A stretch of 32,000 nucleotides of DNA. Source: an uncultured Methanomassiliicoccales archaeon (GTDB lineage: Archaea; Thermoplasmatota; Thermoplasmata; RBG-16-68-12; CAYFXO01). Below, piece by piece: positions 9,413 through 31,755 of the stretch. The notes below the pieces were generated by a model, which worked only from the letters and a program-made list of their open reading frames with translations, did no database searches and was not told where the DNA came from. The stretch is from contig CAYFXO010000001.1 in assembly GCA_964347125.1 (NCBI GenBank), forward strand, positions 5,557-37,556, in the 5' to 3' direction. Each line of letters opens with the position of its first letter. The stretch's first letter is position 1. The translations under genes and the position numbers were made by a program.

Positions 9413-10636
9413 ATGCCCAGGCAATCCGACATGGACCTCTATCACTTCAAGCGGGAGCTGGAGGCGATCCAGAGGATCGAGGGACGCGGCACGGAACTGG
9501 TCAGTCTGTACGTCCCCCCGGGGAAGCAGATCAGCGACGTGGCGAACTACCTCCGGAACGAGCTCTCGGAGTCCTCGAACATCAAGTCCAAGAGCACCCG
9601 GAAGGCGGTCATGGGGGCCATCGAGTCCATCCTGTCCCGCCTGAAGCACTTCCGCCAGCCCCCGGAGAACGGCATGGTCTTCTTCGTGGGCCAGAAGCTC
9701 CTCGGCGGGGACAAGACGGAGCAGGTGGCGTACGTCATCGAGCCCCCCGAGCCCCTGGGCACGGACCTGTACCGGTGCGACTCCCGGTTCTACACGGAGC
9801 CGCTGGAGGAGATGCTGCAGGAGCGGGACCGCTACGGCCTCCTGGTCATGGACCGGGGCGAGGCGACCCTGGGCAGCCTCCGGGGGAAGCGCATCGAGCC
9901 CATCAAGAACATCCAGTCCCTCGTCCCCAGCAAGCACTCCAAAGGGGGGCAGTCCGCCCGACGCTTCGAGCGCCTCATCGAGATCGCCGCCCACGAGTTC
10001 TACAAGAAGGTGGGGGACCTGGCGAACGAGGCCTTCGCGGGGGAGGATCTGAAGGGCTTCCTCATCGGCGGGCCCGGGGCGACGAAGGACGCTTTCCTGA
10101 ACGGGAGCTACCTCCATCACGAGCTGAAGGGCCTGGTCCTGGGGCCGTTCGACACGGGCTACACGGACGAGTACGGGCTGCGGGAGCTCGTGGGGAAGGC
10201 CCAGGACACCCTCTCCGACCTCGCCCTGATGCGGGAGAAGGACCTCGTGCAGAAGCTCTTCGACGAGATCCGGAAGCCCCACGGCGGCCTGGCGGCGTAC
10301 GGGGAGGAGGAGGTGCTGCGGGCCCTCACCTCGGGGGCGGTGGACACCCTTCTCGTGTCGGAGACCCTGCGGAAGGACCGGGTGTCCTTGCGGTGCGCGT
10401 CCTGCGGTCACACGGAGGAGCGGACGGTGGAGGCGGGGAGCGACGCCATCGCGTGCCCCGAGTGCGGCGCGGCGGCGAGCGTCGGGGAGCGGGCGGACTT
10501 CGTCGACCACCTCCAGGGGCTCGCGGAGGCCTCGGGGAGCACCCTGGAGATTGTCTCAGGCGAGTCGGAGGAGGGGCAGCTGCTGATGAAGGCCTTCGGG
10601 GGCCTGGCGGCCCTCCTGCGGTTCCGGGTGAGCTGA
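9413..10636 (+). CDS. prf1: peptide chain release factor aRF1
   Basis: NIKS motif (SSNIKSKSTR) and GGQ motif (HSKGGQSARRFERL), with full-length eRF1/aRF1 architecture. Confidence 0.95.
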   Translation: MPRQSDMDLYHFKRELEAIQRIEGRGTELVSLYVPPGKQISDVANYLRNELSESSNIKSKSTRKAVMGAIESILSRLKHFRQPPENGMVFFVGQKLLGGDKTEQVAYVIEPPEPLGTDLYRCDSRFYTEPLEEMLQERDRYGLLVMDRGEATLGSLRGKRIEPIKNIQSLVPSKHSKGGQSARRFERLIEIAAHEFYKKVGDLANEAFAGEDLKGFLIGGPGATKDAFLNGSYLHHELKGLVLGPFDTGYTDEYGLRELVGKAQDTLSDLALMREKDLVQKLFDEIRKPHGGLAAYGEEEVLRALTSGAVDTLLVSETLRKDRVSLRCASCGHTEERTVEAGSDAIACPECGAAASVGERADFVDHLQGLAEASGSTLEIVSGESEEGQLLMKAFGGLAALLRFRVS

Positions 10637-12402: not shown

Positions 12403-15400
12403 CTACTTCTTCACCTTCGGCTTCGCCCGCTTCTCGGGCTTCTCGCCCTTCTCCCGCCGACGGAAGCGGATCTCGCCGCGCTGGTACTTCTTGCGAAGCC
12501 ACAGGAGCACGGGGACCGCGATGATCAGCAGGATGATGGCCAGATAGATGAGGGGTCGGACGTAGCCGGGCTCGATGACCCGGACCCAGCCGGGGTTCGC
12601 GTCGTTCGTGTTGTCGCCCCACTCGCCGTCCCATTCGCCCTGGACGGAGGCATTGACGTAGATGGTGTAGTTCCCGATGACATCGCGGGAGAAGGTGATC
12701 TTCGCGGTCTTCGTCTCTCCCGCTGCGAGGCTGTTGTTGACCGGGAGGACCCCAGTCGCGTTGAACCACTGGACGTCCGCGGGGGTCTTCAGCGACACGC
12801 GGTTGCCCGTCTGCCCGCCGGAGAGGAACTCGAACTGCAGCTGGACGTTCGAGGCGTTCGCCCGGCCCTCCAGGTTCTCCACCTGGATGCTCAGGGTCGT
12901 CGTCTGTCCTTGCTCGATGGTGCGAGGCTTCGCGTCGAAGGAGGTGGAGAGCACCCGGACGTTCGGGCGGCTCTCGGGGTCGATGAGGACGACGAGGGTC
13001 ACGTTGACGCTCCCCACGTTCCCCGCCTGGTCCGTCACGTTCAGGGTGACGGTGTACCCCTCGAGGTTCACCTCGTCGTAGACGTGGCTCACGTTGATGA
13101 ACTCCCCGGGCTGGCCGGGGCCCATCCCTTCGCCGTCGTCGAAGGTCCAGTTGAAGGTGAGGTTCGTGATGTCGTCGAAGTTGTCCGTGGTGTCGCTGGC
13201 GTTGAAGTAGACCGTCTGGCCCTCGATGATCTGGACGACCTCCGCGAAGGTCTCGTTGAGGACGACGAACTCCGGCTGGGGCTCGGTGACGTCCTTCACC
13301 CGGACGGAGAGCGTGGCGTTCTGGCTCTCGTGGTCCACCACGTCCGTCACCTTGAGGGTCGCGTTGAACTCGCCGGGCTGGCTGTAGATCTGGGTGGCGG
13401 TCTCGCCGAAGCCGTCGACGGTCCCGTCGCCGTCCCAGTCCCACTCCCAGGTCCCGATGAGGCCGGGGACGGTGCCGAACATCGTGTCGGTGGAGTTGGC
13501 CCCGCTGAATTCCACGGAGGCGCCCTCCTCCACGACGAACGTGGTCCCGTCCATCTCGGCGCCCGAGGTGATGTCCGCGGCGGCCACCGGGTCCTCCACG
13601 TCCACGGAGACGGAGATGTCCCGATAGGTGACGTCCCCGCCCGCTTCCGTGACCGTGAGGTTCACGGTGAAGTTCCCGCCGACGGTGTAGTTGTGGGTGG
13701 CCTGGATGCCGTAGCCGATGAGGGAGGGGTTCGTGTTGTTCCGGAACCTCCAGGTGAAGTTCGCGAAGGGGGAGACGAGGCCGTCGGCGCTGTTCGGGTC
13801 CGTGGAGTCCTCGGCGGAGAACGTGATGTTCTCCATGCCCCGGACGATGACGGTGTAGTTCTCGAAGGACTCGTTGAGGGGGTGGAAGGTGCCGTTGACC
13901 ACCTTCGCCCGGGCCGTCCCGTTGGCGCGCCGCTGGATGTCCAGGGTGGCCGTGGGAACGTCGGGGGCGGAGGCGGGCTTCGTCTTCGGGTCCACGGTGA
14001 CCGTGGTGAAGCCCGTGACCGCGACGTTCGTCGGGTTCGTGGTGTTCCCCACGAGCTCGTACTGGGCGGGGAGTTCGAAGACATACTGGTAGTCCTTCGT
14101 GACCGCGCCGGTGCTGTCGTAGGTGCCGTTCACCACGAGGGTGTACTCCTCTAGGTCGAGTTCGGGGTCGGCCACTGCGTTGTAGATGGCCGTCATGTTG
14201 ACCCAGACCCGGCCGCCCGCGTCGATGGCGGAGTCCGCGTAGGGCGCGAAGGTGGCGGCGAAGGTCAGGGCGTCGCTGCGGTAGTACTCGTTGTCGACGG
14301 TGAGGACATCGCGGGTGACGACGAACCGCGGGCCGCGGTCGAAGAACCAGGTGAGGAAGTTGTCAATCTCCGCGGTCGTCAAGGTGCCGTCACCGTCGCC
14401 GAGGGCGGAGTCGATCTGCAGACGCAGGTTGCTGACCCCGGCGTTCTCCAGGCCGGGGACGGCGCTGTCCGCATTGAGGGACCAGGCCCGCTCGAGCTGG
14501 ATGACGTTCCAGTTCTCGGCGACAAAGCTCACGGTGTTCGTGAAGGTCTCCTTCTCCGCGAGGGAGAGGGTAATGTTGCCCAGGTTCACGGTGCTCCCGG
14601 CGACCGTCAGGCCGCTCAGGGTGTAGGCCGCGTATCCATCGGCGTCCACCACGAGGGTGAAGTTGCCGTTGTAGGTCCCGATCTCGAACTTCGGTCCCGC
14701 AGAGACGCGGGAGAGGGTGCGGTTGTTGTCCTCGTCGTAGAGGACGGCCTTGATGGTCTTCGTGATCCCGAGGCCGCTCGCCGCGTCGAAGACGCGGCCC
14801 CAGACGACTGTCTGAAAGAGGGTGACGTTGTATTCCGTGGGCCCGCCGAGGGGCACGGGCTCGTCCGCGACAGCGTACTCCCGGTCATAGTCGGCGGTGA
14901 GGACGTCGCCATTGAACAAGTCGACGAAGACCGTAATCTCACCGGTGACCAGGTCTGCGTTGTACTCCGAAGTGGGTGTTAGGGGAATCCCGTTCCTGTT
15001 TATCACCAGGGGTGGGATGGGTGGATAAGACAGTCGGCTCGTGTTTGTGAGGTACTCGTAGTCAATTTGGGCGGAGTGATTGTAGAAGCCGACGATGTCG
15101 TCGCCCGGGAATAAGGTCCACATCGAGAGGGACACAATCCCTGTGTTGCGATCAATGGTGTAGTTGGGCATGCCCATGCTAGCATTCTCCACGAGGGGGG
15201 TGTACTCGGTTCCATTCCAGTAGACGAGATCCTCGTTGAGGACGTAAGGGGACAGTCCCACCAGGGTCAGGGGGAACGCGGCCTCGCCGCCTATGGCGTC
15301 AAAGATATTCGTCGAGTTGTCCCAGAACACGGTATGGTTGTATGTCGCCGTTAGGTTGTATTGGGGCGGGAGAGGGGTGTTGTAGGTCACGATGCCCGCC

Positions 15401-16359
15401 GCGGCGTTCAGCACGTAGTCCGACCACACGCTCCCGTTGTTCCGGACCGTGATGTTGAGGATGTCCGCCTTGGCCAAGACCGCCTGGGCCTCGCCGCCGA
15501 GAGATTGCAGCACGAGGGTTTCAGAGAACTGCGCGGTGTAGTTGTAGGACGCGGTCACTTCCGCGTCCGGCCCAAGGGCGGGGGTGAAGCTGACCTCTCC
15601 CGTGGGATAATCTATCGTATAGTCCCCGGGAGACGTCAGGGTCACGGCGTCCGCCACGATCGTTTCTGAGCCGAGGACGACGTTTGGGTTCGCCAGGCGC
15701 CCCGTCTTGCCATGGGGCACAATGTCGATGGTCGCGAAGTGCGGCGAGAGGCCGGTGTGGGTGACGTGAATCTGGTAGGTCCCGCTGTAGAAGTCCAGCG
15801 CGTACGTGCCATCGGTCGCCGTGGTCGTGGCGTTGCTGTACCCCATGTCCGGGTCGATGAGCGTCACCGAGGCCCCCGCGAGGACCTTCCCCGCGGAGTC
15901 GCGGACGGTGCCGGACACCGTCGAGTCGATGACGCGCGTCTCGAGGGGGATGTCCCCGAGGGACTGGTTCTGCCCGAAGTCGAGACGAAGGACGCCGGTG
16001 GTGAAGGTGAAGTAGACCTTCCCGTCCTGGAAGGGGTTCGAGTCGGGTTGGATGATGACCTCGTAGTAGCTGGGCGCGGGAGCCTCCACCTGGAAGTAAC
16101 CGCCCTCGATCGAGAGGGTGTTGGCCACATCGGCGACGCCGTTGGAGATGTCGTCGAGGCGGACACGGATCCCGCTGAGGCCTTCCGCCGGGAGGTTGTA
16201 GGTGCCGGATGCGTCAGTGTCTTCGTAGACCCAGCCAAACAAAATGGGCTTGGCCTGGGTCGCGCTCGCATGCCAGCTCGGCAGTGCCGCCAAGGCGCCC
16301 ATCAGGACGAGGAGCGCCAGCAACACCGCTGCTACACCGTTGGCGTTTCCCGGTTTCAT
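12403..16359 (-). CDS. large cell-surface (S-layer/adhesin-like) glycoprotein: signal peptide, CarboxypepD_reg-like domains, repeated modules, 3 PKD domains, CARDB-like domain, C-terminal TM anchor
   Basis: Signal peptide MKPGNANGVAAVLLALLVLMGALAALPSWHASA. VSGTVRDSAGKVLAGASVTLID...TDGTYAL is carboxypeptidase-regulatory-like. It has three PKD-like units. The C-terminus has a TM helix (LIYLAIILLIIAVPVLLWL) followed by a Lys/Arg tail. There are very many N-x-S/T sequons. Confidence 0.9.
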   Translation of the reverse strand: MKPGNANGVAAVLLALLVLMGALAALPSWHASATQAKPILFGWVYEDTDASGTYNLPAEGLSGIRVRLDDISNGVADVANTLSIEGGYFQVEAPAPSYYEVIIQPDSNPFQDGKVYFTFTTGVLRLDFGQNQSLGDIPLETRVIDSTVSGTVRDSAGKVLAGASVTLIDPDMGYSNATTTATDGTYALDFYSGTYQIHVTHTGLSPHFATIDIVPHGKTGRLANPNVVLGSETIVADAVTLTSPGDYTIDYPTGEVSFTPALGPDAEVTASYNYTAQFSETLVLQSLGGEAQAVLAKADILNITVRNNGSVWSDYVLNAAAGIVTYNTPLPPQYNLTATYNHTVFWDNSTNIFDAIGGEAAFPLTLVGLSPYVLNEDLVYWNGTEYTPLVENASMGMPNYTIDRNTGIVSLSMWTLFPGDDIVGFYNHSAQIDYEYLTNTSRLSYPPIPPLVINRNGIPLTPTSEYNADLVTGEITVFVDLFNGDVLTADYDREYAVADEPVPLGGPTEYNVTLFQTVVWGRVFDAASGLGITKTIKAVLYDEDNNRTLSRVSAGPKFEIGTYNGNFTLVVDADGYAAYTLSGLTVAGSTVNLGNITLSLAEKETFTNTVSFVAENWNVIQLERAWSLNADSAVPGLENAGVSNLRLQIDSALGDGDGTLTTAEIDNFLTWFFDRGPRFVVTRDVLTVDNEYYRSDALTFAATFAPYADSAIDAGGRVWVNMTAIYNAVADPELDLEEYTLVVNGTYDSTGAVTKDYQYVFELPAQYELVGNTTNPTNVAVTGFTTVTVDPKTKPASAPDVPTATLDIQRRANGTARAKVVNGTFHPLNESFENYTVIVRGMENITFSAEDSTDPNSADGLVSPFANFTWRFRNNTNPSLIGYGIQATHNYTVGGNFTVNLTVTEAGGDVTYRDISVSVDVEDPVAAADITSGAEMDGTTFVVEEGASVEFSGANSTDTMFGTVPGLIGTWEWDWDGDGTVDGFGETATQIYSQPGEFNATLKVTDVVDHESQNATLSVRVKDVTEPQPEFVVLNETFAEVVQIIEGQTVYFNASDTTDNFDDITNLTFNWTFDDGEGMGPGQPGEFINVSHVYDEVNLEGYTVTLNVTDQAGNVGSVNVTLVVLIDPESRPNVRVLSTSFDAKPRTIEQGQTTTLSIQVENLEGRANASNVQLQFEFLSGGQTGNRVSLKTPADVQWFNATGVLPVNNSLAAGETKTAKITFSRDVIGNYTIYVNASVQGEWDGEWGDNTNDANPGWVRVIEPGYVRPLIYLAIILLIIAVPVLLWLRKKYQRGEIRFRRREKGEKPEKRAKPKVKK
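12988..13827 (-). repeat. three tandem PKD-like domains within the surface protein
   Basis: FSAEDSTDPN...FTWRF...HNYTVGGNFTVNLTVTEAGG; FSGANSTD...WEWDWDGDG...YSQPGEFNATLKVTD; FNASDTTD...FNWTFDDG...HVYDEVNLEGYTVTLNVTDQAGN. Confidence 0.8.
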
Positions 16360-16540: not shown

Positions 16541-16897
16541 TCAGCCCAGCTGCTCGGCCCGCCCCCAGACCTCCTCGGGGAGGCTGTCGTATGCGAACCC
16601 CTCGTCGGGACGGTCCTGCGGGGACTCCGCCTCGGACTCGTCGGGCAGCTCCCAGTAGAAGATCCGCCAGGACTTCCCGGAAGGCAGTAGCACGGTCTCC
16701 CAGGTGCTCCGCAGGAGCCCCAAGTCCTGCAGCCGGTAGAACAGCTTCCGGTCCTCACTGTCGATGGCGTTGTCGATGATTACGGTGCCGTAGCCGAAGT
16801 AGGAGAGGACCGTCTCCGCCATGCCCAAGGCTTCCGCTGACCCGATGCCCGCCTGCCTCTCGATGAGGCTGCCGAGGGTTTCCGGGGTCAGCACCAT
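16541..16897 (-). CDS. hypothetical protein (118 aa) with an acidic C-terminus
   Basis: High GC3, GAGGAGGAGG immediately upstream of ATG 16897, and a TATA-like element at 16934-16945. I recognise no family. Confidence 0.6.
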   Translation of the reverse strand: MVLTPETLGSLIERQAGIGSAEALGMAETVLSYFGYGTVIIDNAIDSEDRKLFYRLQDLGLLRSTWETVLLPSGKSWRIFYWELPDESEAESPQDRPDEGFAYDSLPEEVWGRAEQLG

Positions 16898-17058: not shown

Positions 17059-17235
17059 ATGAAGCGTCGGAGTCGGAAGAGCATGGTGGACATCCGCCGC
17101 GGGGTCACCGTGGTCCACCTGAACGTGGGCTCGGGCTACCTGACTTACCTGGCGACCCCCGGCGACGGGGTGCCGCGCCTCAAGACCATCCTTTTAAGGC
17201 GAAAGAAGCCTGAGGCATACGGCCAGGTTCCATGA
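17059..17235 (+). CDS. small basic hypothetical protein (58 aa)
   Basis: Absent from the track (<60 aa). MKRRSRKSMVDIRRGVTVVHLNVGSGYLTYLATPGDGVPRLKTILLRRKKPEAYGQVP. GC3 is high over most of its length. The stop overlaps the next ATG (ATGA at 17232-17235). Confidence 0.4.
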   Translation: MKRRSRKSMVDIRRGVTVVHLNVGSGYLTYLATPGDGVPRLKTILLRRKKPEAYGQVP

Positions 17236-17675
17236 AGGAAGAGGATCCCCGTTCCCGCCTCCGGACAGCCAAGCAGATCCGGGAGGAGTCCGAAGAGGAC
17301 GACTTCGACTTCGAGGCCGAGTACCCGCCGGAGGAGGGGTCGCCGGAGACCCCCGTGCGCATCCGGGAGTACTCGGATTGGGCACGGAGCGGCCGGTGCA
17401 TGGTGTGCGGGGAAGAGAAGGAGCCCTACGTCGAGGTGGAGGTGGGCGGCCAGTGGGAGTTCACCTGCCAGGCGTGCTACGAGCAGGAGACGGCCCCGAA
17501 GGAGCCGGCGGAGCCCGCGGGCGGGGTCGCATGCCCTTCCTGCGGCGCCCCCCTCCACCCGGGCGATCAGTTCTGCGGGAAGTGCGGTGCGGCGACGGAG
17601 GCCGCCTGCCCGGAGTGCGGCGCCGAGATGGAGCCCGGCGACAAGTTCTGCGGGAAGTGCGGCGCCTCACTTTGA
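17232..17675 (+). CDS. acidic N-terminus plus triple zinc-ribbon protein (double-zinc-ribbon type C-terminus)
   Basis: CMVCG...CQAC, CPSCGAPLHPGDQFCGKCG and CPECGAEMEPGDKFCGKCG. The last two are canonical DZR-style ribbons. Confidence 0.75.
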   Translation: MKEEDPRSRLRTAKQIREESEEDDFDFEAEYPPEEGSPETPVRIREYSDWARSGRCMVCGEEKEPYVEVEVGGQWEFTCQACYEQETAPKEPAEPAGGVACPSCGAPLHPGDQFCGKCGAATEAACPECGAEMEPGDKFCGKCGASL

Positions 17676-18665
17676 CCGCTTAACGGTGACCTTGCGGTCG
17701 GGGCCCGCGTAGGTCTTCGTGGGGAGGGGGTCCCCCTCCGTGACCTCGAACCGCCCGAGGTGCACCTCCACCCGTTCCACGTCGTCCTCCAGGGCAGGGA
17801 TCGTCCCCTCCGCCAGGGGCTGCCACAGGAGGTAGGTGATGTCGTCCACCACTTCGTCGACGAAGATGGCCTTCGCCGGCTCCGGCTCCACGGTGGCCGC
17901 GTAGATCATCGGCGAGAGGGAGACCTTCAGGTTGACGCTCAGCGTCCCGTCCTCGCGGCTGATCGTGAGGACATTCTCGCCCCCGGCGGAGCCCTCGAAG
18001 GGTCCCGCGCGGATTCGGTGCTCGTGACCGCGCCCCTCCTCCACGGAGACCGTCTCGGCCTTGAGGGACGCGACGACGTGCTCCGTGAGGGCCCGGGCCA
18101 GCTCCCCGATGGCGTCCGTACCCGACGCGGCCTCGACCTCCTTGGAGTACACGATACCCACGGAGGACTTGAAGGCGTGGAGGGTGGAGCGATAGGACAC
18201 CCGCTGCGTGACATCCACGGGGACCTCCTCCACCCCGTTCCCCTTCGCGTAGCAGCGGTAGTGGGTGCCGTTCGTGACGAGGGACACCCGGTTCCGGTCC
18301 TTCCCCGCCCGCGAGAGGAGGGTGCGGTCGTCGACACCGCTGTGGAAGACGTCCTCCGGGGAGTGGATGTGTCGGAAATCCCCGCCGTGGCCGCTCATGG
18401 ACGGGTGGGAGTGGTAGAGGCCCACGATCCCCACGTTCCGCGGGTACCGCCCTGCGACTTTCGCCTCCTCCAGGGGGTCCGCCTCCGCCCCGAAGCGGCT
18501 CTGGCGGCGGTAGACGGTGCACGGGATGGCCTCGCTGATCCGCACGGTGCCGCCTTCCTCGAAGCCCACGAGCCACCCGATGACCTCCCGCCCGCGGCGC
18601 TTCCACCCCCGCCGGGCGTGGTCTAGGAGGGCGTCCAAGGCGGACCGCTGCAGGACGACGCTCAC
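17667..18665 (-). CDS. JAB/MPN+ (JAMM) metalloprotease with an uncharacterised C-terminal domain of about 180 aa
   Basis: I place the start at GTG 18665, overlapping the E1 stop (GTGA). EVIGWLVG (Glu motif), GLYHSHP (HxH), then HSPED / HSGVD (SxxD candidates). The upstream track extension is Pro/Arg-rich and off-frame relative to the E1 gene. Confidence 0.85.
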   Translation of the reverse strand: MSVVLQRSALDALLDHARRGWKRRGREVIGWLVGFEEGGTVRISEAIPCTVYRRQSRFGAEADPLEEAKVAGRYPRNVGIVGLYHSHPSMSGHGGDFRHIHSPEDVFHSGVDDRTLLSRAGKDRNRVSLVTNGTHYRCYAKGNGVEEVPVDVTQRVSYRSTLHAFKSSVGIVYSKEVEAASGTDAIGELARALTEHVVASLKAETVSVEEGRGHEHRIRAGPFEGSAGGENVLTISREDGTLSVNLKVSLSPMIYAATVEPEPAKAIFVDEVVDDITYLLWQPLAEGTIPALEDDVERVEVHLGRFEVTEGDPLPTKTYAGPDRKVTVKRSK

Positions 18666-19420
18666 GGGCTCAGCCCCCCGCAGGTCGGGCATTTGGGGTC
18701 CCGCTCCCAGTCGTAGCGCTCCAGGGTGCCGTCCATCCCTTTGTACATGAGGTAGGCGGCCTGGTTCCCGAACTGGAGGAGGTACTTGAGGGCCTCCTGG
18801 CACTGGAGGCTCGCCACGATGGCCATGGTGGTGGGGAGGGAGGTGAAGTGGCAGAGGCCGGACTCATCGCGCCGGTGCTCGACCCGCCCCTCCTCCGTGG
18901 CGAGGGGCTTGTTGCAGCGGTAGCACGGGGTGCGGCCGGGGAGGATCACGTGGACGGAGCCGTTGATGCCGTCCTGGGAGGCCCCCGCGTCGATGAGGGC
19001 GCGCTTCGCGGGGACACACTTCGCGTTGAGGAACATCCGCACCTGGAAGGAGTCCACGCACCCCAGGATGAGGTCCGAGGCCTCGATCTCGCCCGCGAGG
19101 GCGTCGTACCCCTCCCCGTCCGTCACGTCGTGGGGGTGGGTCGTCACCTCCACGTCGGGGTTCGCGCGGTGGATGTAGGCCTTCATGGCGTCCACCTTCG
19201 GCATCCCGACCTGGGAGGGGTCGTAGATGAGGCGGTTGAGGTTCGCCTCCTCCAGGGTGTCGTAGTCCAGTAGGGCCAGATGGCCGACGCCGCACCGGGC
19301 GAGGATGTCCGCGGAGAGGGCGCCCAGGCCGCCGACGCCCACGATGGCGACCCGCTTGTCGACCAGGCCGGAGAAGTCGGCGAACTCGAAGAGCCGCAGG
19401 CGGGCGTAGCGCTCCGTCAT
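18662..19420 (-). CDS. UBA5-like E1 (ThiF/MoeB-fold Ubl-activating enzyme)
   Basis: [41 protein letters not shown] is the Rossmann/ATP site. CYRC and CPTC form the zinc pairs. [31 protein letters not shown] closely matches the remembered UBA5 catalytic-Cys region. ATG 19420 overlaps the E2 stop (ATGA); GTG 19426 is an alternative start. Confidence 0.9.
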   Translation of the reverse strand: [252 protein letters not shown]

Positions 19421-19884
19421 ATCCACCCCTTCGCCTTCATGTCATGGACCACGCTCCGGAGCCAGTAGGAGACCTCCCGCTTCAGGTAGAGGGCCATCCC
19501 CGCGTGGTCGTCCCACCAGTAGTCCTGCTCCATGTGCATGTCGCAAATCCGGAGGCCCAGGACGGGGTCGTCCAGCTTCCGGTCCGTGTAGTGCATCAGC
19601 TCGGGGATGCGGACCGCAGGGGGGGTGTGGGGGTAGGCGTCCTTGAGGACGAGCTCCAGGGTGAAGGCCTGGTCCGCCGCCCGGACCTCCCCCGTCCACC
19701 GGGTGGAATTGTGATCCCGGGCGTCCAGGGTGAACCACTCATTGCCCTCCAGGTAGCGCAGGTACTCGGAGAACTTCTGGAGGGCGTAGCGCTCCTCCTT
19801 CACCCGCGTGGGCCACGCGTCGTCCCGCGGGGAGGCGACCGTCGCGCATTGCAGGAAGTAGAAGAGGTCGTCCTCCCTAGCCAT
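19417..19884 (-). CDS. UFC1-like E2 (Ubl-conjugating enzyme)
   Basis: SPRDDAWPTRVKEERY, WFTLDARDHNSTRWTGEV, YPHTPPAVRIPEL and GLRICDMH (Cys114) parallel the remembered human UFC1 blocks GPRDRELWVQRLKEEY, WFRLESNKEGTRWFGKC, YPTTAPEIAVPEL and GGKICLTDH (Cys116). Confidence 0.85.
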   Translation of the reverse strand: MAREDDLFYFLQCATVASPRDDAWPTRVKEERYALQKFSEYLRYLEGNEWFTLDARDHNSTRWTGEVRAADQAFTLELVLKDAYPHTPPAVRIPELMHYTDRKLDDPVLGLRICDMHMEQDYWWDDHAGMALYLKREVSYWLRSVVHDMKAKGWI

Positions 19885-19888
19885 GGGC

Positions 19889-20134
19889 TCAACCGACGAT
19901 GCTCGGATCGATGACGTGGATGTTGGTGCCGCTCTGGGCCACCTCGTCCACGGTGCCGCCCTCGATGGGGGAGCCCCCGGGGAACGTGGCGGTGAGGATG
20001 GAGGGGTCGCGCCCCTGGCGCTTCGCCGCCATGACCAGGGCCTCCTGGAACAGCATGGCGTTCGGCACCTTCAGGGAAACGACGGGCTTCTCGGGGTCCG
20101 AGATGAAGACGAACCGGAGGGTCGTGTGGGTCAT
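19889..20134 (-). CDS. UFM1-like ubiquitin-fold modifier (81 aa), ends ...IVG-stop
   Basis: FISDPEKPVVSLKVPNAMLFQEALVMAAKRQ...NIHVIDPSIVG aligns without gaps to the remembered human UFM1 [31 protein letters not shown]...ELRIIPRDRVG(SC). AGGTG lies 5-6 nt before ATG 20134. Confidence 0.8.
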   Translation of the reverse strand: MTHTTLRFVFISDPEKPVVSLKVPNAMLFQEALVMAAKRQGRDPSILTATFPGGSPIEGGTVDEVAQSGTNIHVIDPSIVG

Positions 20135-20163
20135 GGGGGCACCTGAAGCGAAGTAAGCGGCGG

Positions 20164-20176
20164 GGTTTATTTAGGG
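20164..20176 (-). promoter_or_regulatory. TATA-like promoter of the Ubl-E2-E1-JAMM operon
   Basis: The minus strand reads CCCCTAAATAAACCCC about 35 nt upstream of ATG 20134. Confidence 0.4.
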
Positions 20177-23394: not shown

Positions 23395-26300
23395 TTGGTG
23401 GGGAATGGAGGAGTCGATTTGAGCCCGCGCATCCACTCGCGCCTACTGAGCGTATTGGTCGTTGTCACGCTGTCCTCCTCCGCGTTCGCGTTCTTCCCCG
23501 CGGCGACGGGCGACGTCACAGACGGCGTGGACGTGGCCCCCGCGGACGATTCCCTCGGTCCCGCGGCCCCCACCACGGAGGACCCGCAGACGATCGCGGG
23601 CCTCTATAAACTCGAGGCGGGCCTCCGAAGCCACCTCGACTCCAAGGAGACCGTCCGCGTCCTCATCGCGACCTACGACGTGGGCGCCCTCGGCGTGGCC
23701 CTGGGGGCGGGGGCGGTGGACGCCGCCGACCTCGGTGCCAAGGCCCCCGGCCTCGCGGTCCCCATGGTGGACCTCCAGGGCGTCCGCCTCAAGGAGATCG
23801 CCGCCCTGGACTCCACCGTCGCCATCATGGAGTGGCGGCCCCCGGAGCGGCAGGTCGTTGAGACCGTGGACACCTTCTCGAAGAAGGGCGTGCGCCCCAG
23901 CAACCTCAACTCCACCCTGAACCACCTGGCCCCCCAGGCGTGGGCCGCGGGGTGGACGGGCGACGGGGTGCGCATCTCCGTCATGGACGACGGGGTGGAC
24001 TTCGCCCACCCGGACCTCATGGGGACCATGGCCCGGTTCAACTGGACGAACCTCCCCGCGAACATCCAGGCCGCGAAGCCCCACCTCCGGCACTACGACA
24101 ACTGGCCCATGGCCTTCGACCCCTTCTCCATGTCCAGCTTCATGATGAACAACGGCGAGGCGGAGGGGACGTGGTACGGGAACACCACCTCCACGGACCG
24201 CAACGTCACCCACACCATCCGGATCGACGGCCGGAACGACTTCTGGGACGACGGGAGCGAGCTCGTCGCCACCGACCTCCGGGGGGACATCAACGTCGGC
24301 CAGCCGTCCCACCTGGGGAACGACTTCGACCTCGTCTCCCTGTACGCCACCCAGGACGCGGACTGGTGGTATTTCGGCTTCGACACCTTCACGAACCAGT
24401 CGGACGTGGCCTTCGGCCTCTACATCGACACGGACAACGTCACGGGGTCGGGCGGGGACGTGGACCCGCGAGCGGGGAGCCTCATCACCGCCGTGCCCGA
24501 GCACCGCCCGGAGTTCGTCGTCTACATCGACCACCTGGGCGGGCAGCCCCCGGGGCAGTACGACCGGAACGACACCGTGGAGAACGGGACGGTCTACACC
24601 TGGCTGGGCTCCGCCTGGGACGCCGGGGTGAACATCACGGAGTTCCCCATCAACGGGCAGATCAGCTACAGCGCCTGGGACTTCGAGGATGAGGAGGCGT
24701 TCCTGGAGTTCTCCCTGCCCAAGGCGTTCCTAGGGGACCCCCAGCAGCTCGCGGTGGAGCTGTTCACCGCGGGGGTGAACGCGTCCCACGCCCTGGACAC
24801 CGCCTACTCCGACCCGAACGTGAACTTCCCAGCCCCCGACTGGACGCCGACGCCCACCCAGCTCTCCGCGTTCACCTACGTGGGGCGGGGCTTCTGGATC
24901 CACACCTACGTCCGCTCCGACGACACCGTCGCGGGGAAGCCGAACGTCCAGATGTCGTGGCCCCTGGAGTACCAGGTCACGGGGACCAGCAAGAGCGGCG
25001 GCTACTACTTCGGCGACCACCCGGACGACAACTACCCCCTCACCCGGATTCTCGTGGTGGACGAGGCGGTGGCGGGGGTGTACGACACCGTCTACGTGGA
25101 CCTGGACCACAACCGGGACTTCACGAACGACAAGCCCCTGAAGAAGTACGGGAAGTACTGCGCGGACAAGCAGTGGCGGCCCGCGGACGACCCCGTGGCC
25201 TGCCCGGTCTACGACGAGACCTCGTGGCTGGACTTCTTCGACCCCGCCTCGGGGGTGACGTCCATCGACTACGCCCCGAACGGGACGTGGATTGCCACCG
25301 GGTCCAACGACCACCGGATCCTCCTGTGGGACGCCGCCTCCGGCGCCCAGGTCAACGAGTTCCACGCCCACCGCGGGCGGGTGACGTCCGTGGCCTGGGA
25401 CCTTGCGGGGCTACGCCTCGCCGCGGGCTATGCCGACGCCTCCGGCCGCGGGCAGCACGCCGTGGTCGTGTGGAACTGGGACGGCACGGTGGCCGCCACG
25501 TTCACCGAGAGCGACGGCGGGCACACCGCGGGGGTCACCGCCGTGGCGTGGGACCCCGTCGGGGCGAACAACCGCCTCGTCTCCGCGTCGATGGACGGCA
25601 CCGCGAAGGTCTGGAACGTCGGAACGGGCCTCGTGGCCACCCTCACCGGACACACGGCCGCCGTCGGGACCGCGGACTGGGGCGCCAACGGCATCGCCAC
25701 CGGCTCTGACGACGGGACCGTGCGCCTCTGGGACGCCTCGTGGACCGAGGCGGACTCGGTGGCCCACGGCACGCCCCTCAACGCCATCGCGTTCAGCCCG
25801 AACGGGACGTGGCTCGCCTACGGCGACCGGGCGGGGCTCCTGAGCGTGTGGGACGTGGTCCTGGACGCCTGGAGCACCTGGTCCATCCCCGAGCACCAGA
25901 CCCTCCCGATCACCTCCGTATCCTGGTCCCCCGTGGCCTCCCAGCTCCTCACCACCTCCACGTGGGACGAGGAGACGAACAACTTCGTCCTCGCCCGGTG
26001 GACGGTCAACAACTACAACGACTTCTTCGTCACCGGCTCCAAGACGGGGCAGGCGGCCCACGAGGCCAGCGTGTTCTCCGGGACCTGGTCCACCGACGGC
26101 CTCTCCGTCGTCTCCGGCGGGGAGGAGGCCCGGGCGCGGCGGTGGACGAGCGCCACCCTCTCCCTGGAGGGAGACTACAAGGGCCACGCCCTGGGGTCCA
26201 CCGACTACACGTGGTACCTCACGGGCGACGGCGTCCCGGACGTCTCCGGCGGGATCATCTACTTCATCGCGCAGAACGAGTGGGACTTCGGCAGCGGGAC

Positions 26301-29300
26301 CCTGGAGCAGGTGCCCATCCCCTACTCGGACGTGTGGATCGCCCGCCAGCCGGCCGTGCTGGACCTGCAGAACATCATCCCCGCCAACGGGACCGTCGTC
26401 GCCTTCATGGGCGCCCTGGACCTGGACCAGGGCCACGGCACCCTCGTCGCGTCGAGCCTCGTGGGGCGCGGCCAGTCCACCTACTTCGACGAGGGGACCA
26501 TGGACGTCCCCACGGTGGGCCACGTCATCGGGTTCGCCCCTGACGCCCTCCTCGTGCCCGTGGCGAACGTCTACGCCACGAACTTCTACGACGGCTGGTA
26601 CTTCTCGGTGGAGGGCTACGACGGCACCCCGAACACGGGGGACGAGGCCCACATCATCTCGAACTCCTTCGGCTTCTCCGGGACCTACCACGACGGGTGG
26701 GACTTCAACGCCCGGTTCCTGGACTACCTGGTGAACGACCACGCGGACGGGAACGTGACGATCACGGTGTCCTCGGGGAACTCCGGGTGGGGGTACGGGA
26801 CGGTGTCCACCCCCGCGGCGTCCCCCGCGGTCATCACCGTCGGCGCGGCCACGGACTTCTTCTACCGCCACCTCTCGGGGCTGGAACGGGGCCTCAACCC
26901 GACGTTCGGGGAGGTCACCCCGGAGTCCTCCCGCGGGCCCACGGCCCAGGGGATGCCGGACCCGGACGTGGTGGCGAACGGCCGCATGGCCTTCGGGTCT
27001 GTCGCCCTGAACCAGGTGGACTACCGCCCCTACAACGGCTACGAGGCCACGAACCTCTGGGCGGGGACGTCCCTGGCCTCGCCGGGGGCTGCGGGGATGC
27101 TCGCCCTGGCCTTCCAGGCGTACAAGGAGGCCAACGGGGCGTTCCCCAACGCGAGCGTCGCCAGGAGCCTCCTCATGAGCGGGGCGGACAATCTGAAGTA
27201 CGACCCGCTGGTCCAGGGGGCGGGGCGGGTGAACGCCCTCCGCACCGCGCAGTTGGCGGCCGGGCAGGACGGCTTCCTCGTGGCGCCGAACCTGTGGAAC
27301 CCCGGGGACTACCAGGGCACCCGGTACGAGTCGTTCGCCCACCTCATGGACCCGGGGGACAGCGCCCAGGAGACCTTCACCGTCACGAACGTCGCCCCGG
27401 CGCCGGACACCCTCACCCTCACGGACGCGGTCTTCCAGAAGACCTCCGAGGTGAACTTCACCTTCCAGACCCAGACGGACCTCCCCAACGACCCCGCCCA
27501 CTGGTTCCTCATCCTCCACGGCCTCCCCCTGGCCCTGACGGGGACGGGGGTGTACGACAAGAATTACCAGAAGGTCGCGGCCATCGACGAGGGTGAGTGG
27601 CTGAACGCGGACCTCCTGCGGATCAGCTACCGGGTTCCCATCGGCGACCTGGATCCCGACGGCGACGGGAACACGAACTACTCCTACTTCCTCGAGGTCA
27701 TGGACTGGTCCGAGGACGACTGGACGATGTTCCCGCCGGAGCCGAACACGGGGGCCTTCAGCGACCTGAACCGCCGCCTCATCGTGTTCCCCGACGCGAA
27801 CGTGTGGGAGGGGCGCATCCACGACCCCGCGGGGCGGACCCACGACGGGTTGGCGATGGGCGTCCGGGCGGGCATCCAGCCGGGGAAGCCCGGGGCCGCG
27901 GGGATCAACTTCCTGGTGACCCTGGAGTTCTACCAGAAGGCGGACTGGAACTGGCTGAGCCTCAGCACGGGCTCTCTGTCCCTGGCGGGCGGGGAGACGC
28001 AGACCTTCACCTCGACGGTGGACGTCCCCGCGGGGACCCCCATCGGCGGCTACGAGGGGGCCATCTACATCCAGGGCGACCCCGCCACCGCCTCCGCCAC
28101 TCGGTCGATCCAGGTGCCCTTCTTCGCCAGCTGGGTGTCCGCGGACCACCAGGACATCTCCGCCCTCACGGTCCTCAGGAACGGCGTCCCCCAGACGGCG
28201 GGGGTGGACTACCTGGAGTACCTGGCCGCCGGGATGGTCAACTTCACCGCCCCGCTGAACCCCGGCGACGTGGTGCAGATGGACTACACCTACGCGAACA
28301 CCACGACGATTCCCGTGGTGATCAACGTCCCCTCGAACCAAGTGGAGTTCGGCTTCGGGCAGGACGCGCCGGGGCAGGACGACCTGTTCCGGAACCGCGT
28401 CGTGGGGGGCTTCGGGCAGGGCACCCAATCCGGGGACTGGCGGTTCTACTTCGTGGACGTCCCCGACCAAGGGCAGTTCTCCATCGAGAGCGGCTCGAAG
28501 TTCTTCCTGGACCTCCAGTGGGACCTGGACATGACGGACATCAACGGGTACGCGTTCGGGCCGGGGGCGGTGCCCATCGCCGCGGGCCTCACCGCGGGGG
28601 CGTTCCCCCAGAGCCGGTACGGGCCCTACCTGCTGTACACGACCAACGGCGGCTCCGAGGAGACGGCCACGTTCTTCACGACCACGGGCGGGCCGGAGGA
28701 GATCGTGGCCCCGGGCCTCGTGGGGGGCCTGAACGTCCTGGCGATCCAGAACGTCCTGATGAACGGGACCTACGCGTCGGAGGCCGTCTCCGGGCAGGTG
28801 GGGAGCATGCGCGTGAACCCGCCGGAGATCAAGGTGGTGACGAACGAGCTCTCCGGGTCCCGGGATGTCCTCCTGTACTCCAGCGTGCCGTGGCCCGGCA
28901 TCGGGAGCGTCTCCGCGGGGCCGTCCGCCCCGGAGGAGTTCCTCGACGTCCCCATCCAGCAGGACGTCATCGAGGGCGGCACCTTCATCGACCTCCTCGT
29001 GGGCGGCTCCTACACGAAGGTCGTCAACGTGGAGCCCAGCGCCCTCATCTTCGACGTCCACATCACCTCGAACCCCGGGGACCCGCCGGAGGGGACGGCG
29101 GAGCCCTGCGACGACCTGGACCTGGCCCTGTTCCTCGACGGGAAAGGGCCGGACAACGTGCCGGACGGCGCGGCCCAGGTGGAGGAGTTCGTCGTCTACG
29201 ACGCGGACGCCGACGCGGACGAGCACATCCGCCTCATCAAGCCGACGGTGCAGGACGACCCGGACACGCCCGAGGTCAACGAGGGCGTCGTCGGGGCGCC

Positions 29301-31755
29301 GTACATCATCAAGGTCCTCGGGTTCACGTGCCCCAAGGGCTTCGGGACCTTCAACATGGACCTCACCCTGGTGCAGGGGGAGGGCTTCACGGTGGCGGGG
29401 ACGACCGCCGCCCTCATCCCCGCGTGGAACGTGAGCACCGTCACCCTGCAGTGGAACCTGGACGGGAGCACCCCCGACGGGGAGCTCCTGGGGGCGCTCT
29501 ACGTGGGCCCGGAGAAGGCCCCCCTCACCCTCCTGATCCCCGTGGAGCTGGCCGTCGACCGGGTCGCGCCGGTGATCGAGGGCTTCAGCCTGAACACCGC
29601 CCCGGGCCTCCAGATCGAGAACGCGACGCAGCTGCGGACGAACGATCCCATGCCCCGGGTGGCCATCTCGTTCAGCGACGCGGAGCGCGGCGAGCTTTCG
29701 TACGACTCCGTCCGGCTGTGGCTGGACGGCCAGGACATGACCCCCCAGGCGGAGGTCGTCATCCCGTTCGGCCTGAACGCGGAGGAGAAGCTCGGGTACT
29801 GGCAGGGGGCGGTGACCTTCGGCGTGCCCGCGCCCCTCCCGGACGGCCCCCACTTCCTCACGGTCGCCGTGGGGGACGAGGGGGGGAACGTCGCGTCCCA
29901 GAGCTTCGTCGTCGTCATCGACACCCAGTCCCCGCCCCTGACCCTGGACGACCCGGACGTGAGCTTCACGAACCAGGGGACCCACGCCATCACGGGTGCG
30001 TCGCGGCCCGGAAGCACCGTGGAGATCCCCGGCGGGACCGTGGAGATGGAGGCGGACGGGACCTTCCGGGCGACGGTCACCCTGGCGGAGGGCGCGAACG
30101 TGTTCGAGGTGCGGTCCGTCCCGTGGTACTCCGTGGACGGGTCGGGGAACCCCGTGCCTGCCAACGTGGCCACGGTGGAGAAGACCATCGTCTACGACGC
30201 CCTCGCGCCGGCCTTCGACCAGGCCCTCATCCAGGGGCCGAACCCCACCCGCACGGCGACCGCCCCGGTGACGGGGCGGGTGTCGGACCTCATCGCGGCG
30301 GGGACGCCGTGGGACCCGACGACGCTGGCGGTGACGGTGGCCGGTCGCGCGGTGGCCGTGAACGCGGACGGCTCATTCGAGACCCTCGTGCCGCTGGTGG
30401 AAGGACCGAACGTCATCCCGTTGACGGCGACGGACCTCGCGGGGAACACCGCGTCGGTGAACCGGACCGTGATCCTGGACACCTTGGCGCCGAGCCTTTC
30501 GCTGGAGGCTGTGCCGGAGACGACGAATCGGAGGACCCTCACGATCGAAGGGCAGACGGAGCTGTCGGCGGTCCTCACCCTGAACGGCGGGCTCGTGGTG
30601 ACGGCGGCGGGCGCCTTCACCGTGGACGTGGAGCTCAGCCGGGGGGCGAACGTCCTGGTGGTCGCGGCGGAGGACGTGGCGGGGAACCGGGTGGAGCGCC
30701 GCCTCGTCGTGGAGTACCGCCCGGAGGCGGGGCCGGACCTCCTGCTGTGGGTGCTCGCGCCGCTGCTCCTTGTGGTCGGGCTGCTCCTGGGATTCTTCGT
30801 GGGGCCGCGGGTCCTCGGGCCGCGGGGCCCTGAGGAGGAGGAACCGGAGGAGGCGGAGCCCGAGGAACTCCCGGAGGAGGACGAGCGGATCGCGCGGCTG
30901 CGGGAGGCCTACGAGTCCGGGAGGATCACCGAGGAGGTGTACGAGGAGAACCTGGCCCGCCTCGCGGGGGAAGCCCCGGAGGAAGAAGCTCCGGCGGAAG
31001 AGGAGGAGATCCCGCCCGAAGAGGAGGAGGAGGAACCTCCGGAAGAGGACCAGCGCCCGCCCGAAGAGGAAGAGGCGATCGCGCCGGAGGAAGAGGAGAT
31101 TCCCGAAGAGGCGGTCCCGGCCGAGGAGGACCCCTTGGCCCGGCTGGAGGCCGCCTTCGCCGCCGGCAGGATTTCGCGGGAGGTCTACGAGCAGAACCGG
31201 GCACGGCTGACGGGGGCCCCTCCCGCGGAGGAGGAAGCGGCCGAGGAGGAACTCGAGGAGCCTCCCGAGGAAGTGGAGGAGCCCCTCGCAACGGAGGACC
31301 AAGTCACCCGGCTCCAAAGGGCCTTCGAGGCGGGGAGGATCTCCGAGGCGGTGTACCGCGAGAACCTCGCCCGCATCGGCGTCGAGGCCCCGGAGGAGCC
31401 CGAGGAAGAGGCCGTGGAACCCGAAGAGGAGGTCCCGGAAGAGGACGAGCGAGTGCTCCGGGTTCAGCGGGCCTACGAGGCGGGCAAGATCTCCCGGGAC
31501 GTGTACGAGAAGAACCTGGCCTTGATGGGCTTCGAGGTCCCCGAGGAGGCGGTCGACCTGGGGCCGCTGACGCGGCTTGCCGAGGCGTTCGCGGCGGGTC
31601 GGGTCTCGGGGGACCTGTTCACCCAGAACCTGGGCCGCCTGGAGCTCCCTGACGCGGAGTTGCCCAACAAAGTCGAGAGGCTCTCCGCGGCGTACGAGGC
31701 GGGGAAGATCTCCGAGACGGTGTTCCGCGAGAACGTGAAGCGGCTCCTCAAGTAG
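23395..31755 (+). CDS. giant (about 2780 aa) type-I membrane-anchored S8 subtilisin-like serine protease with an inserted WD40 propeller, Ig-like stalk domains and a cytoplasmic SHOCT-repeat tail
   Basis: There is no ATG start. Candidates are TTG 23395, GTG 23398 and TTG 23419, the last preceded by GGAGGAG plus a 5-nt spacer and giving signal peptide (M)[26 protein letters not shown]8 motifs: [17 protein letters not shown] (Asp, 23986), [11 protein letters not shown] (His, 26434), IISNSFG (Asn, 26662) and [12 protein letters not shown] (Ser, 27070). TM helix at 30739-30804. Confidence 0.9.
25261..26148 (+). repeat. seven WD40-like blades inside the protease
   Basis: Blade ends ...[11 protein letters not shown], ...HAVVVWN, ...[10 protein letters not shown], ...[11 protein letters not shown], ...[10 protein letters not shown], ...NNFVLARWT and ...[10 protein letters not shown], each preceded by an H/GH..V.(S/A)(V/I)(A/S)W-type strand. 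Confidence 0.8.
30880..31749 (+). repeat. six SHOCT-like repeats of about 28 aa separated by Glu/Pro-rich linkers (cytoplasmic tail)
   Basis: Repeat cores: 30880-30963 [28 protein letters not shown]; 31129-31209 [27 protein letters not shown]; 31294-31377 [28 protein letters not shown]; 31441-31527 [29 protein letters not shown]; 31558-31641 [28 protein letters not shown]; 31666-31749 [28 protein letters not shown]. Confidence 0.8.

Follow-up and report, generated by a model that had tools for sequence, protein, structure and literature searches.

A UFM1-like modifier ending at Val-Gly is probably translated conjugation-ready from an archaeal operon with UFC1-family E2, UBA5-like E1 and JAMM protease genes

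Introduction

In eukaryotic UFMylation, the ubiquitin-like modifier (Ubl) UFM1 is served by the E1 enzyme UBA5 and the E2 enzyme UFC1, the E3 is UFL1/DDRGK1 (and CDK5RAP3), and ribosomal uL24 is the main target. The pathway is regarded as a eukaryotic invention. An operon of Thermoplasmata that carries a UFM1-like modifier together with a UFC1-family E2 and a UBA5-like E1 would change that picture. Here we describe such an operon in a stretch of 32,000 nucleotides from an uncultured Methanomassiliicoccales archaeon (assembly GCA_964347125.1, contig CAYFXO010000001.1, positions 5,557 to 37,556), which we call the window and number from its first letter. The subject of the study is the first gene of the operon, at positions 19889-20134 of the minus strand, which encodes a Ubl of 81 residues ending in Val-Gly. 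We consider it probable that this gene specifies a UFM1-family beta-grasp modifier that is translated conjugation-ready, and that the E2, E1 and JAMM protease of the same operon are its cognate enzymes.

Picchianti et al. (2023) described UFM1, UFC1, UfSP2 and C53 as exclusively eukaryotic and only UBA5 as having prokaryotic relatives (PMC10183829). Prokaryotic Ufm1 has been reported only in Asgard archaea (Koestlbacher et al., Nat Microbiol 2026, PMC12962969), in a text in which UFC1 and UBA5 have no occurrences. In open-access papers and bioRxiv we found no description of a UFC1-/UFM1-type system in Thermoplasmata.

The modifier gene

Read on the minus strand, the open reading frame (ORF) runs ATG...GTC GGT TGA and encodes the protein MTHTTLRFVFISDPEKPVVSLKVPNAMLFQEALVMAAKRQGRDPSILTATFPGGSPIEGGTVDEVAQSGTNIHVIDPSIVG. 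The protein has neither Lys nor Arg beyond R42, so that trypsin would leave a remnant of 39 residues on a target, where Asp-N should leave DPSIVG. Its last codons (GTC GGT TGA, 19889-19897, minus strand) specify Val80 and Gly81 with the stop directly after them, and the start codon of the E2 gene lies 4 nt past this stop. The original prediction had described the terminus ...HVIDPSIVG-TGA without naming a strand, and this is indeed what the minus strand encodes. It had also held that the Ubl needs no C-terminal processing, and in the window gene the position of the stop leaves nothing to be removed.

The coding status of the ORF is supported by its composition, its pattern of change and its distribution. 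G+C content at codon positions 1, 2 and 3 is 61, 45 and 95%, nucleotide differences from nine orthologous loci fall 189, 108 and 438 times on the same positions, homologues form 54 protein clusters with 68-100% identity to the window protein, and the gene is carried by 29 species-level genomes. Consequently, 19889-20134 is a real gene. Two plus-strand ORFs that overlap it (87 and 85 amino acids) were dismissed as artefacts of the 68% G+C content of the window, in which spurious overlapping ORFs abound. Read-through of the TGA was likewise considered and set aside: it would add at most four residues before an in-frame TAG. Since all four genes of the operon stop with TGA, nothing suggests that this codon is recoded.

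The N-termini of some relatives have been annotated differently. One subgroup of homologues (P0004-P0012 and similar) is annotated as beginning seven residues earlier, with MASETPIKTQ..., and representatives retrieved by the large profile search described below carry far longer N-terminal extensions that look like miscalled starts.

The Val-Gly end and its tails

A lone ORF ending in Val-Gly is unremarkable by chance. The end gains its meaning from two observations: V80 and G81 do not vary in an alignment of 33 Ubl sequences, and a joint MAFFT alignment places them in the columns that hold the metazoan UFM1 Val-Gly (identity 29%). The proposal that a single Gly preceded by Val is the hallmark of UFM1 fits the family as a whole. 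So does the statement that eukaryotic precursors carry residues after this dipeptide, as all 120 metazoan UFM1 sequences listed have a tail there, most often SC.

The archaeal family generally ends at the dipeptide itself. The stop falls exactly at Val-Gly in 43 of 53 full-length protein clusters and in 22 of the 31 loci read. These loci represent 30 distinct places, as L001 is the same place in CP070767.1 as L016; without L001, 22 tail-less and 8 tailed loci remain. The stop at Val-Gly is the rule in the Thermoplasmata Ubl family, and the stop after the glycine is not strain-specific. A check of homologues for general C-terminal extensions, or for a stop confined to one strain, found about three quarters of them ending as the window protein does.

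Tails of 1-12 residues follow Val-Gly at the 8 tailed loci and in about 10 of the 53 clusters. Those seen at loci read T, FQ, SR, FR, SC, SPRPRP, SLPPSIL and GLPALDSGALTV, more occur among the protein clusters and the large-search representatives, and their sequences are unrelated to one another. SPRPRP is not an assembly error, because it was found on two contigs from different samples. The SC tail belongs to locus L030 (6001-6237 of that locus, CP070739.1), whose Ubl ends ...VVGSC, as in human UFM1.

Tail states were mapped on a neighbour-joining tree of E2 and E1 sequences combined. One clade of five species (L018, L019, L024, L025 and L030) has only tails of one or two residues, long tails appear at two or three other places in the tree beside tail-less relatives, and tails are absent from the deepest branches and from most clades. 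Tails are clade-structured, with about three or more gains or losses, and the tail-less form of the Ubl is probably ancestral.

Fold and sequence of the modifier

An AlphaFold (AF2) model of the Ubl, built with an alignment of the 33 homologues, predicts a beta-grasp fold with high confidence (pLDDT 90, pTM 0.79). When the model was compared with the Protein Data Bank (PDB) using Foldseek, the top 12 matches were all UFM1 (TM 0.81-0.87, rmsd 1.1-1.7 Å, identity 22-23%). The next group, made up of SUMO and ubiquitin, stood clearly apart (TM 0.65-0.71, rmsd 2.5-3 Å). Among beta-grasp proteins, the predicted fold is therefore closest to that of UFM1, and the check on whether a beta-grasp fold is predicted at all returned one that is specifically UFM1-like.

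Sequence comparisons point the same way. Aligned with hhalign, the Ubl family matches metazoan UFM1 with a probability of 78.7% and an E-value of 1.7e-5. From the whole PDB the family profile picks up just two sequences; both are UFM1, and neither match is significant (E 0.26 and 0.9). Against 1.84 billion representatives, the profile gave 15 matches at E<=0.001, nine or ten of which are members or fragments of the same narrow family. The remaining matches (P0097 and P0099-P0102) are large proteins and were rejected as spurious; four of them (P0097, P0099, P0101 and P0102) were scanned against Pfam and proved to be three Ig/PKD-repeat surface proteins and one protein without a Pfam match. OMP decarboxylase, the top match of the single Ubl sequence, was judged a chance result.

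The E2 and E1 enzymes

The two genes that follow encode enzymes of the types expected for UFM1. The E2 gene (19417-19884, minus strand, 155 amino acids) passes the Pfam UFC1 cut-off of 25 bits with 49.4 bits (E 5.3e-13), over profile positions 11-151 of 155, and every one of its 26 best matches in the PDB is UFC1. Its putative catalytic residue, Cys114 in LGLRICDMHME, is aligned with the cysteine of the UFC1 motif GGKIC, which we take to be Cys116. Both Cys114 and the motifs YTDRK...CDMHME are invariant in 30 sequences. By our own reading of the phmmer alignment, the invariant stretch PELMHYTDRK...LGLRICDMHME (residues 96-116) has a TDR that can be aligned with the TAK of UFC1, three residues past PEL in both, and a 4-residue insert ahead of the catalytic cysteine.

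The E1 gene (18662-19426, minus strand, 254 amino acids) encodes an adenylation domain only, with a putative catalytic Cys192 (GLCHFTSLPTTM). The protein matches Pfam ThiF at 7.9e-53, and its best PDB match is UBA5 (7.6e-49, 170 bits), ahead of MoeB (1.2e-31, 113 bits). The segment GLC(192)HFTSLPTTM is aligned with GVCAASLPTTM of UBA5, whose cysteine is presumably the catalytic Cys250, and the four cysteines of the zinc site (C168, C171, C246 and C249, in two CxxC pairs) are kept as in UBA5. Cys192 and the catalytic motifs are invariant across 30 sequences. In the E1 of locus L030, the catalytic cysteine is preceded by an additional acidic segment some 20 residues long, and the E1 matches of its clade-mates are also longer.

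Membership of the E1 in the ThiF/MoeB superfamily raises the question of whether the Ubl might be a thiocarboxylate carrier of the MoaD/ThiS/SAMP type, charged by a MoeB/ThiF-like E1, with the JAMM (JAB) protease releasing a small-molecule adduct in the manner of Mec+/CysO. ThiD/ThiN is encoded in the wider neighbourhood (6206-7516), ThiC lies beside the cassette at locus L001, and the best NCBIfam match of the protease is the desampylase family, all of which would suit such a carrier. An E2 with an invariant cysteine is nevertheless present at every locus, and we know of no sulfur-carrier pathway that has an E2. The E1 stays well short of the cut-offs that NCBIfam sets for MoeB, ThiF and the SAMP E1 UbaA (123 bits against a UbaA cut-off of 450) and has no rhodanese or other extra domain after its adenylation domain. 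Furthermore, the Ubl ends in VG, not in the GG of MoaD, ThiS and the SAMPs, and its predicted fold matches UFM1 above any other beta-grasp protein. We regard a sulfur carrier as very unlikely, while a dual role as sulfur carrier and protein tag is conceivable.

Evidence for and against kinship with UFM1

Several observations weigh against reading the operon as a UFM1-type system. As a single sequence, the Ubl has no Pfam match at E<=0.1, so that the Ufm1 family (PF03671) is missed, and a phmmer search with it retrieves no UFM1 in the PDB. The hhalign match to metazoan UFM1 spans the N-terminal 45 columns only, and at E<=0.001 the family profile reached no eukaryotic or Asgard UFM1 among the 1.84 billion representatives. 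Because these sequence matches are weak or partial, the proposed kinship rests mainly on predicted structure and on the cognate enzymes. The E1 ends 5 residues past its last zinc cysteine and has no C-terminal UFM1- or UFC1-binding sequences (UIS/UBS), sequences that eukaryotic UBA5 needs (PMC5428781). Since the archaeal E1 lacks a tail of the UBA5 type, it must recruit the Ubl and the E2 differently than UBA5 does. Finally, no UFL1, DDRGK1 or UfSP homologue was found among the genes of the window.

The failed Pfam match, the non-significant PDB profile matches and the N-terminal restriction of the hhalign alignment would all be expected if the Ubl were an unrelated beta-grasp protein in a generic prokaryotic Ubl operon, its VG end and UFM1-like model being coincidental. 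This kind of coincidence appears highly improbable to us, because three components, the Ubl fold, the UFC1-family E2 and the UBA5-like E1, independently indicate the same eukaryotic pathway. In addition, UFM1 sequences are the only ones in the PDB that the profile touches, and VG stands in the same alignment columns. Overall, sequence homology between the Ubl and UFM1 is moderately supported, and on its predicted structure and partners the Ubl is best described as a remote UFM1 relative that is not a member of the family by the Pfam threshold. The label UFM1-like given in the original prediction is upheld in this sense: the top 12 fold matches, the E2 and the E1 all bear it out, and the Pfam Ufm1 profile does not recognise the protein.

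The JAMM protease

The fourth gene (17667-18692, minus strand, called with an ATG start at 18692) encodes a JAMM/MPN+ metalloprotease of 341 amino acids, in which an N-terminal Rpn11-like domain is followed by a C-terminal domain of about 190 residues. The protein scores above the Pfam cut-offs for Prok-JAB and JAB, and its best NCBIfam match, the desampylase, is below cut-off. In 25 homologues, residues E36, H94, H96 (H94-S-H96), S118 and D121 do not vary. The spacing of this zinc site is non-canonical, with a long insert between HSHP and SxxD that is 10 residues shorter in the divergent P0086 and P0087. A link between the presence of a tail on the Ubl and the protease variant without these 10 residues was considered and dropped, as only L003/P0086 fits it and the short-tail clade keeps the insert.

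The AF2 model of the protease (pLDDT 82.5) has its best fold matches in Rpn11, the Caldiarchaeum Rpn11-homologue (ranks 2-4) and PfJAMM1. The matches listed by Foldseek for the whole model extend over about 160-260 columns and are all MPN/JAB-domain proteins. The C-terminal residues, about 190 in number (17667-18240), are predicted with good confidence to form a mixed alpha/beta structure, and they have no Pfam match.

The presence of a hydrolase next to a modifier that ends at its own Val-Gly bears on what the hydrolase does. The original prediction favoured a deconjugase over a maturase. The Caldiarchaeum Rpn11-homologue and HvJAMM1 are reported to process precursors, and related archaeal JAMM enzymes are said to have dual activity. 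Together with the tails at 8 of 30 distinct loci and in about 10 of 53 clusters, including one clade of five species with tails of one or two residues, this precedent would be compatible with a protease that is primarily a maturase. The Ubl would then normally function by way of a tailed precursor, and genes without a tail would be derived, the protease being dispensable there or doing something unrelated. This account sits poorly with the tree, whose deepest branches and most clades are tail-less, and with the tails themselves, which are mutually unrelated and look like neutral additions. It also fails to anticipate that the protease is kept with invariant catalytic residues in tail-less lineages, which would be unexpected if maturation were its only job. 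We judge it unlikely.

The protease and its catalytic residues are in fact kept in both tail-less and tailed lineages. Judged from this pattern of conservation, maturation cannot be the conserved job of the enzyme, because it is retained where the Ubl needs no trimming. The protease is probably a deconjugase, and also a maturase where tails occur. Consequently, the preference for a deconjugase holds up for the tail-less lineages, and its exclusion of a maturase goes too far for the roughly one quarter of orthologues that are tailed and need processing. Since unrelated tails recur in lineages that keep the same protease, a VG-cutting hydrolase that is always present would make tails harmless, which suggests that they are neutral additions that are tolerated.

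Operon architecture and neighbourhood

The four genes lie on the minus strand in the order Ubl, E2, E1 and JAMM protease, the Ubl gene coming first, and are separated by a gap of 4 nt and overlaps of 10 and 31 nt (+4, -10 and -31). Across the 29 species loci, this order is kept wherever the contig extends far enough. An apparent loss of the protease gene at locus L030 was discounted as uninformative, the stretch past the E1 gene being masked with runs of N. Homologues all come from metagenome-assembled genomes of Thermoplasmata type, labelled Thermoplasmata, Methanomassiliicoccales or Methanobacteriota archaeon, three of which are closed chromosomes. CP070767.1, CP070751.1 and CP070739.1 are complete genomes with the cassette. 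Between the same genomes, identity is about 73% for the Ubl and about 39% for the protease. A putative archaeal promoter and ribosome-binding region precedes the operon (20140-20173, minus strand). Both of its elements were read from sequence alone: a TATA-like TAAATAAA at 20166-20173, 32-39 nt 5' of the Ubl ATG, and AGGTG at 20140-20144, 6-10 nt 5' of it.

The cassette lies in an ordinary chromosomal region that also encodes aRF1, ThiD/ThiN, LigT and a glycosyltransferase, and its long-range synteny reaches a zinc-ribbon protein, a DUF6015 protein and two giant surface proteins. This setting matters for a further alternative, namely that the operon serves defence against viruses, as do bacterial operons of the Ubl-E1-E2-JAB type (Bil, type II CBASS Cap2/Cap3, or 6E/Bub-like operons). 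The gene content is the same. PADLOC assigns CBASS 'E1-E2' models to the E1 and E2 and matches the protease weakly, and one fold match of the protease (rank 23) is the structure of a Ubl-deubiquitinase complex from bacteria. The PADLOC matches are generic, however, the E1 scoring 90 bits against 170 to UBA5 and the E2 22 bits. A UBA5-type E1 and a UFC1-type E2 are encoded separately, with no Cap2-like fusion, the Ubl is highly conserved (68-100% identity), and the cassette occupies conserved chromosomal synteny in 29 species, beside housekeeping genes and not in a variable island. A defence role is, in our estimation, the most improbable of the alternatives considered. Because the synteny is conserved and the PADLOC matches are generic, the evidence argues for a vertically inherited housekeeping system and not for a defence island.

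Two neighbouring genes recur with the cassette, although their membership in the system is uncertain. The zinc-ribbon protein (17232-17675, plus strand; Pfam DZR 4.9e-15) has three zinc ribbons and an acidic N-terminus, and its gene converges with that of the protease, the 3' ends overlapping by 9 nt. A homologue in the same position and orientation occurs at about 20 of the 29 species loci. The DUF6015 protein (16541-16897, minus strand; DUF6015 6.4e-15) is encoded downstream of the cassette and is syntenic at about 14 of the 29; a sequence search of the PDB with it gave one non-significant match only. The DZR and DUF6015 proteins could be accessory factors (adaptor, E3 or target) or could simply reflect conserved synteny.

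Further from the cassette, a giant protein of 2786 amino acids (23395-31755, plus strand) combines a WD40 propeller with a subtilase S8 domain and Ig-like domains. Inspection by eye adds a membrane anchor and, in an acidic tail, six repeats of about 22 residues, AxxxG[RK]I[ST]xxVYxxNLxRL. In the sister clade (L001/L016 and L012-L015), its orthologue is encoded on the strand of the Ubl gene and immediately upstream of it. A surface protein of 1318 amino acids (12403-16359, minus strand) combines PKD and CarboxypepD_reg domains with numerous N-x-S/T sequons; near its C-terminus it has a membrane anchor and, after this, a tail rich in lysine. Its relatives are found downstream of the cassette at several loci. 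The aRF1 gene (9413-10636, plus strand) encodes eRF1 domains 1-3; within domain 3, residues 327-354 weakly match a zinc-ribbon family, below the threshold of that family.

Proposed pathway

We infer conjugation, thioester chemistry, targets and the specificity of the protease, whose activity is deduced from the conservation of residues. In the pathway that we propose, the Ubl would leave the ribosome with Gly81 as its free C-terminus, ready for conjugation as translated. A homodimeric UBA5-like E1 would adenylate Gly81 and bind the Ubl through a thioester at Cys192. Transfer to Cys114 of the UFC1-like E2 would follow, and from there the Ubl would reach lysines of target proteins. The JAMM protease would hydrolyse the bond after Val-Gly. 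In the window genome, its role could only be deconjugation, for recycling or editing, while in sister lineages with tails of 1-12 residues the same protease would most likely also mature the precursor.

A broader evolutionary scenario can be drawn from this pathway, and we put it forward as a tentative and rather doubtful possibility. It supposes a complete and functional UFM1-UFC1-UBA5 conjugation system outside eukaryotes and Asgard archaea, which, as a compact archaeal operon, predated eukaryotes or existed independently of them. A Val-Gly end without a tail and the JAMM deconjugase would be primitive, and the propeptide, UfSP, the adaptor tail of UBA5 and the E3 UFL1 would have come later.

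Comparison with known systems

Taken alone, a pre-matured terminus would be of modest interest. It is the occurrence of a compact UFM1/UFC1/UBA5 cassette in archaea other than Asgard that is surprising for the evolution of Ubls. The cassette would represent a minimal, four-protein version of the pathway, without precursor processing, an adaptor tail on the E1 or a known E3, and it could be reconstituted from recombinant proteins as the simplest form of UFM1-type activation and transfer. It could also reveal what such a tag is attached to in a cell without an endoplasmic reticulum. Furthermore, tail-less and tailed orthologues under one conserved protease provide a natural experiment on why Ubl propeptides exist.

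Among prokaryotic systems, the Asgard Ufm1 homologues (Koestlbacher et al.) resemble the present Ubl in having a UFM1-like structure, and were found by structure-based search. Some of them are partial or multi-domain proteins, whereas the Ubl described here is a stand-alone protein of 81 residues, encoded in an operon of Thermoplasmata-type archaea. The ubiquitin operon of Caldiarchaeum subterraneum (PMC3082918; PDB 6FNN) is likewise archaeal and joins a eukaryote-type Ubl with an E1, an E2 and a JAMM/Rpn11-like protease. That operon, however, has a Gly-Gly end, an E1 and E2 of the ubiquitin type and a RING E3, while the Thermoplasmata cassette has Val-Gly, UBA5-like and UFC1-like enzymes and no recognisable E3.

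Like the cassette, the archaeal SAMP system (SAMP1-3, UbaA and HvJAMM1) pairs a small beta-grasp modifier with a MoeB-like E1 and with a JAMM protease for its removal, and PfJAMM1, known from its complex with SAMP2 (PDB 5LDA), is a top structural match of the operon protease. SAMPs differ in ending with Gly-Gly and in needing no E2, whereas the Thermoplasmata cassette has VG and an E2 at all loci. Bacterial Ubl-E1-E2-JAB defence operons (Bil, type II CBASS Cap2/Cap3) have the same four kinds of component, including a JAB protease that reverses conjugation. Their PADLOC similarity to the archaeal cassette is only generic, and in the cassette the E1 and E2 are separate genes and both the Ubl and its chromosomal synteny are conserved.

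The closest comparison is with the eukaryotic UFMylation core of UFM1, UBA5 and UFC1. The eukaryotic system differs in the propeptide borne by all 120 metazoan UFM1 sequences listed, which the window Ubl lacks, and in its use of the cysteine protease UfSP where the archaeal operon has a JAMM metalloprotease. The archaeal E1 stops past its adenylation domain, without the C-terminal binding sequences of UBA5, and no UFL1, DDRGK1 or CDK5RAP3 is encoded near the cassette among the window genes. The archaeal genes are arranged in an operon, and the Ubl is only about 23-29% identical to UFM1 and misses the Pfam Ufm1 threshold. These differences stand beside likenesses in each component of the core: the predicted Ubl fold is closest to UFM1, with Val-Gly in the same columns, the E2 belongs to Pfam UFC1, and the E1 resembles the adenylation domain of UBA5, with its putative catalytic cysteine inside that domain and four zinc cysteines.

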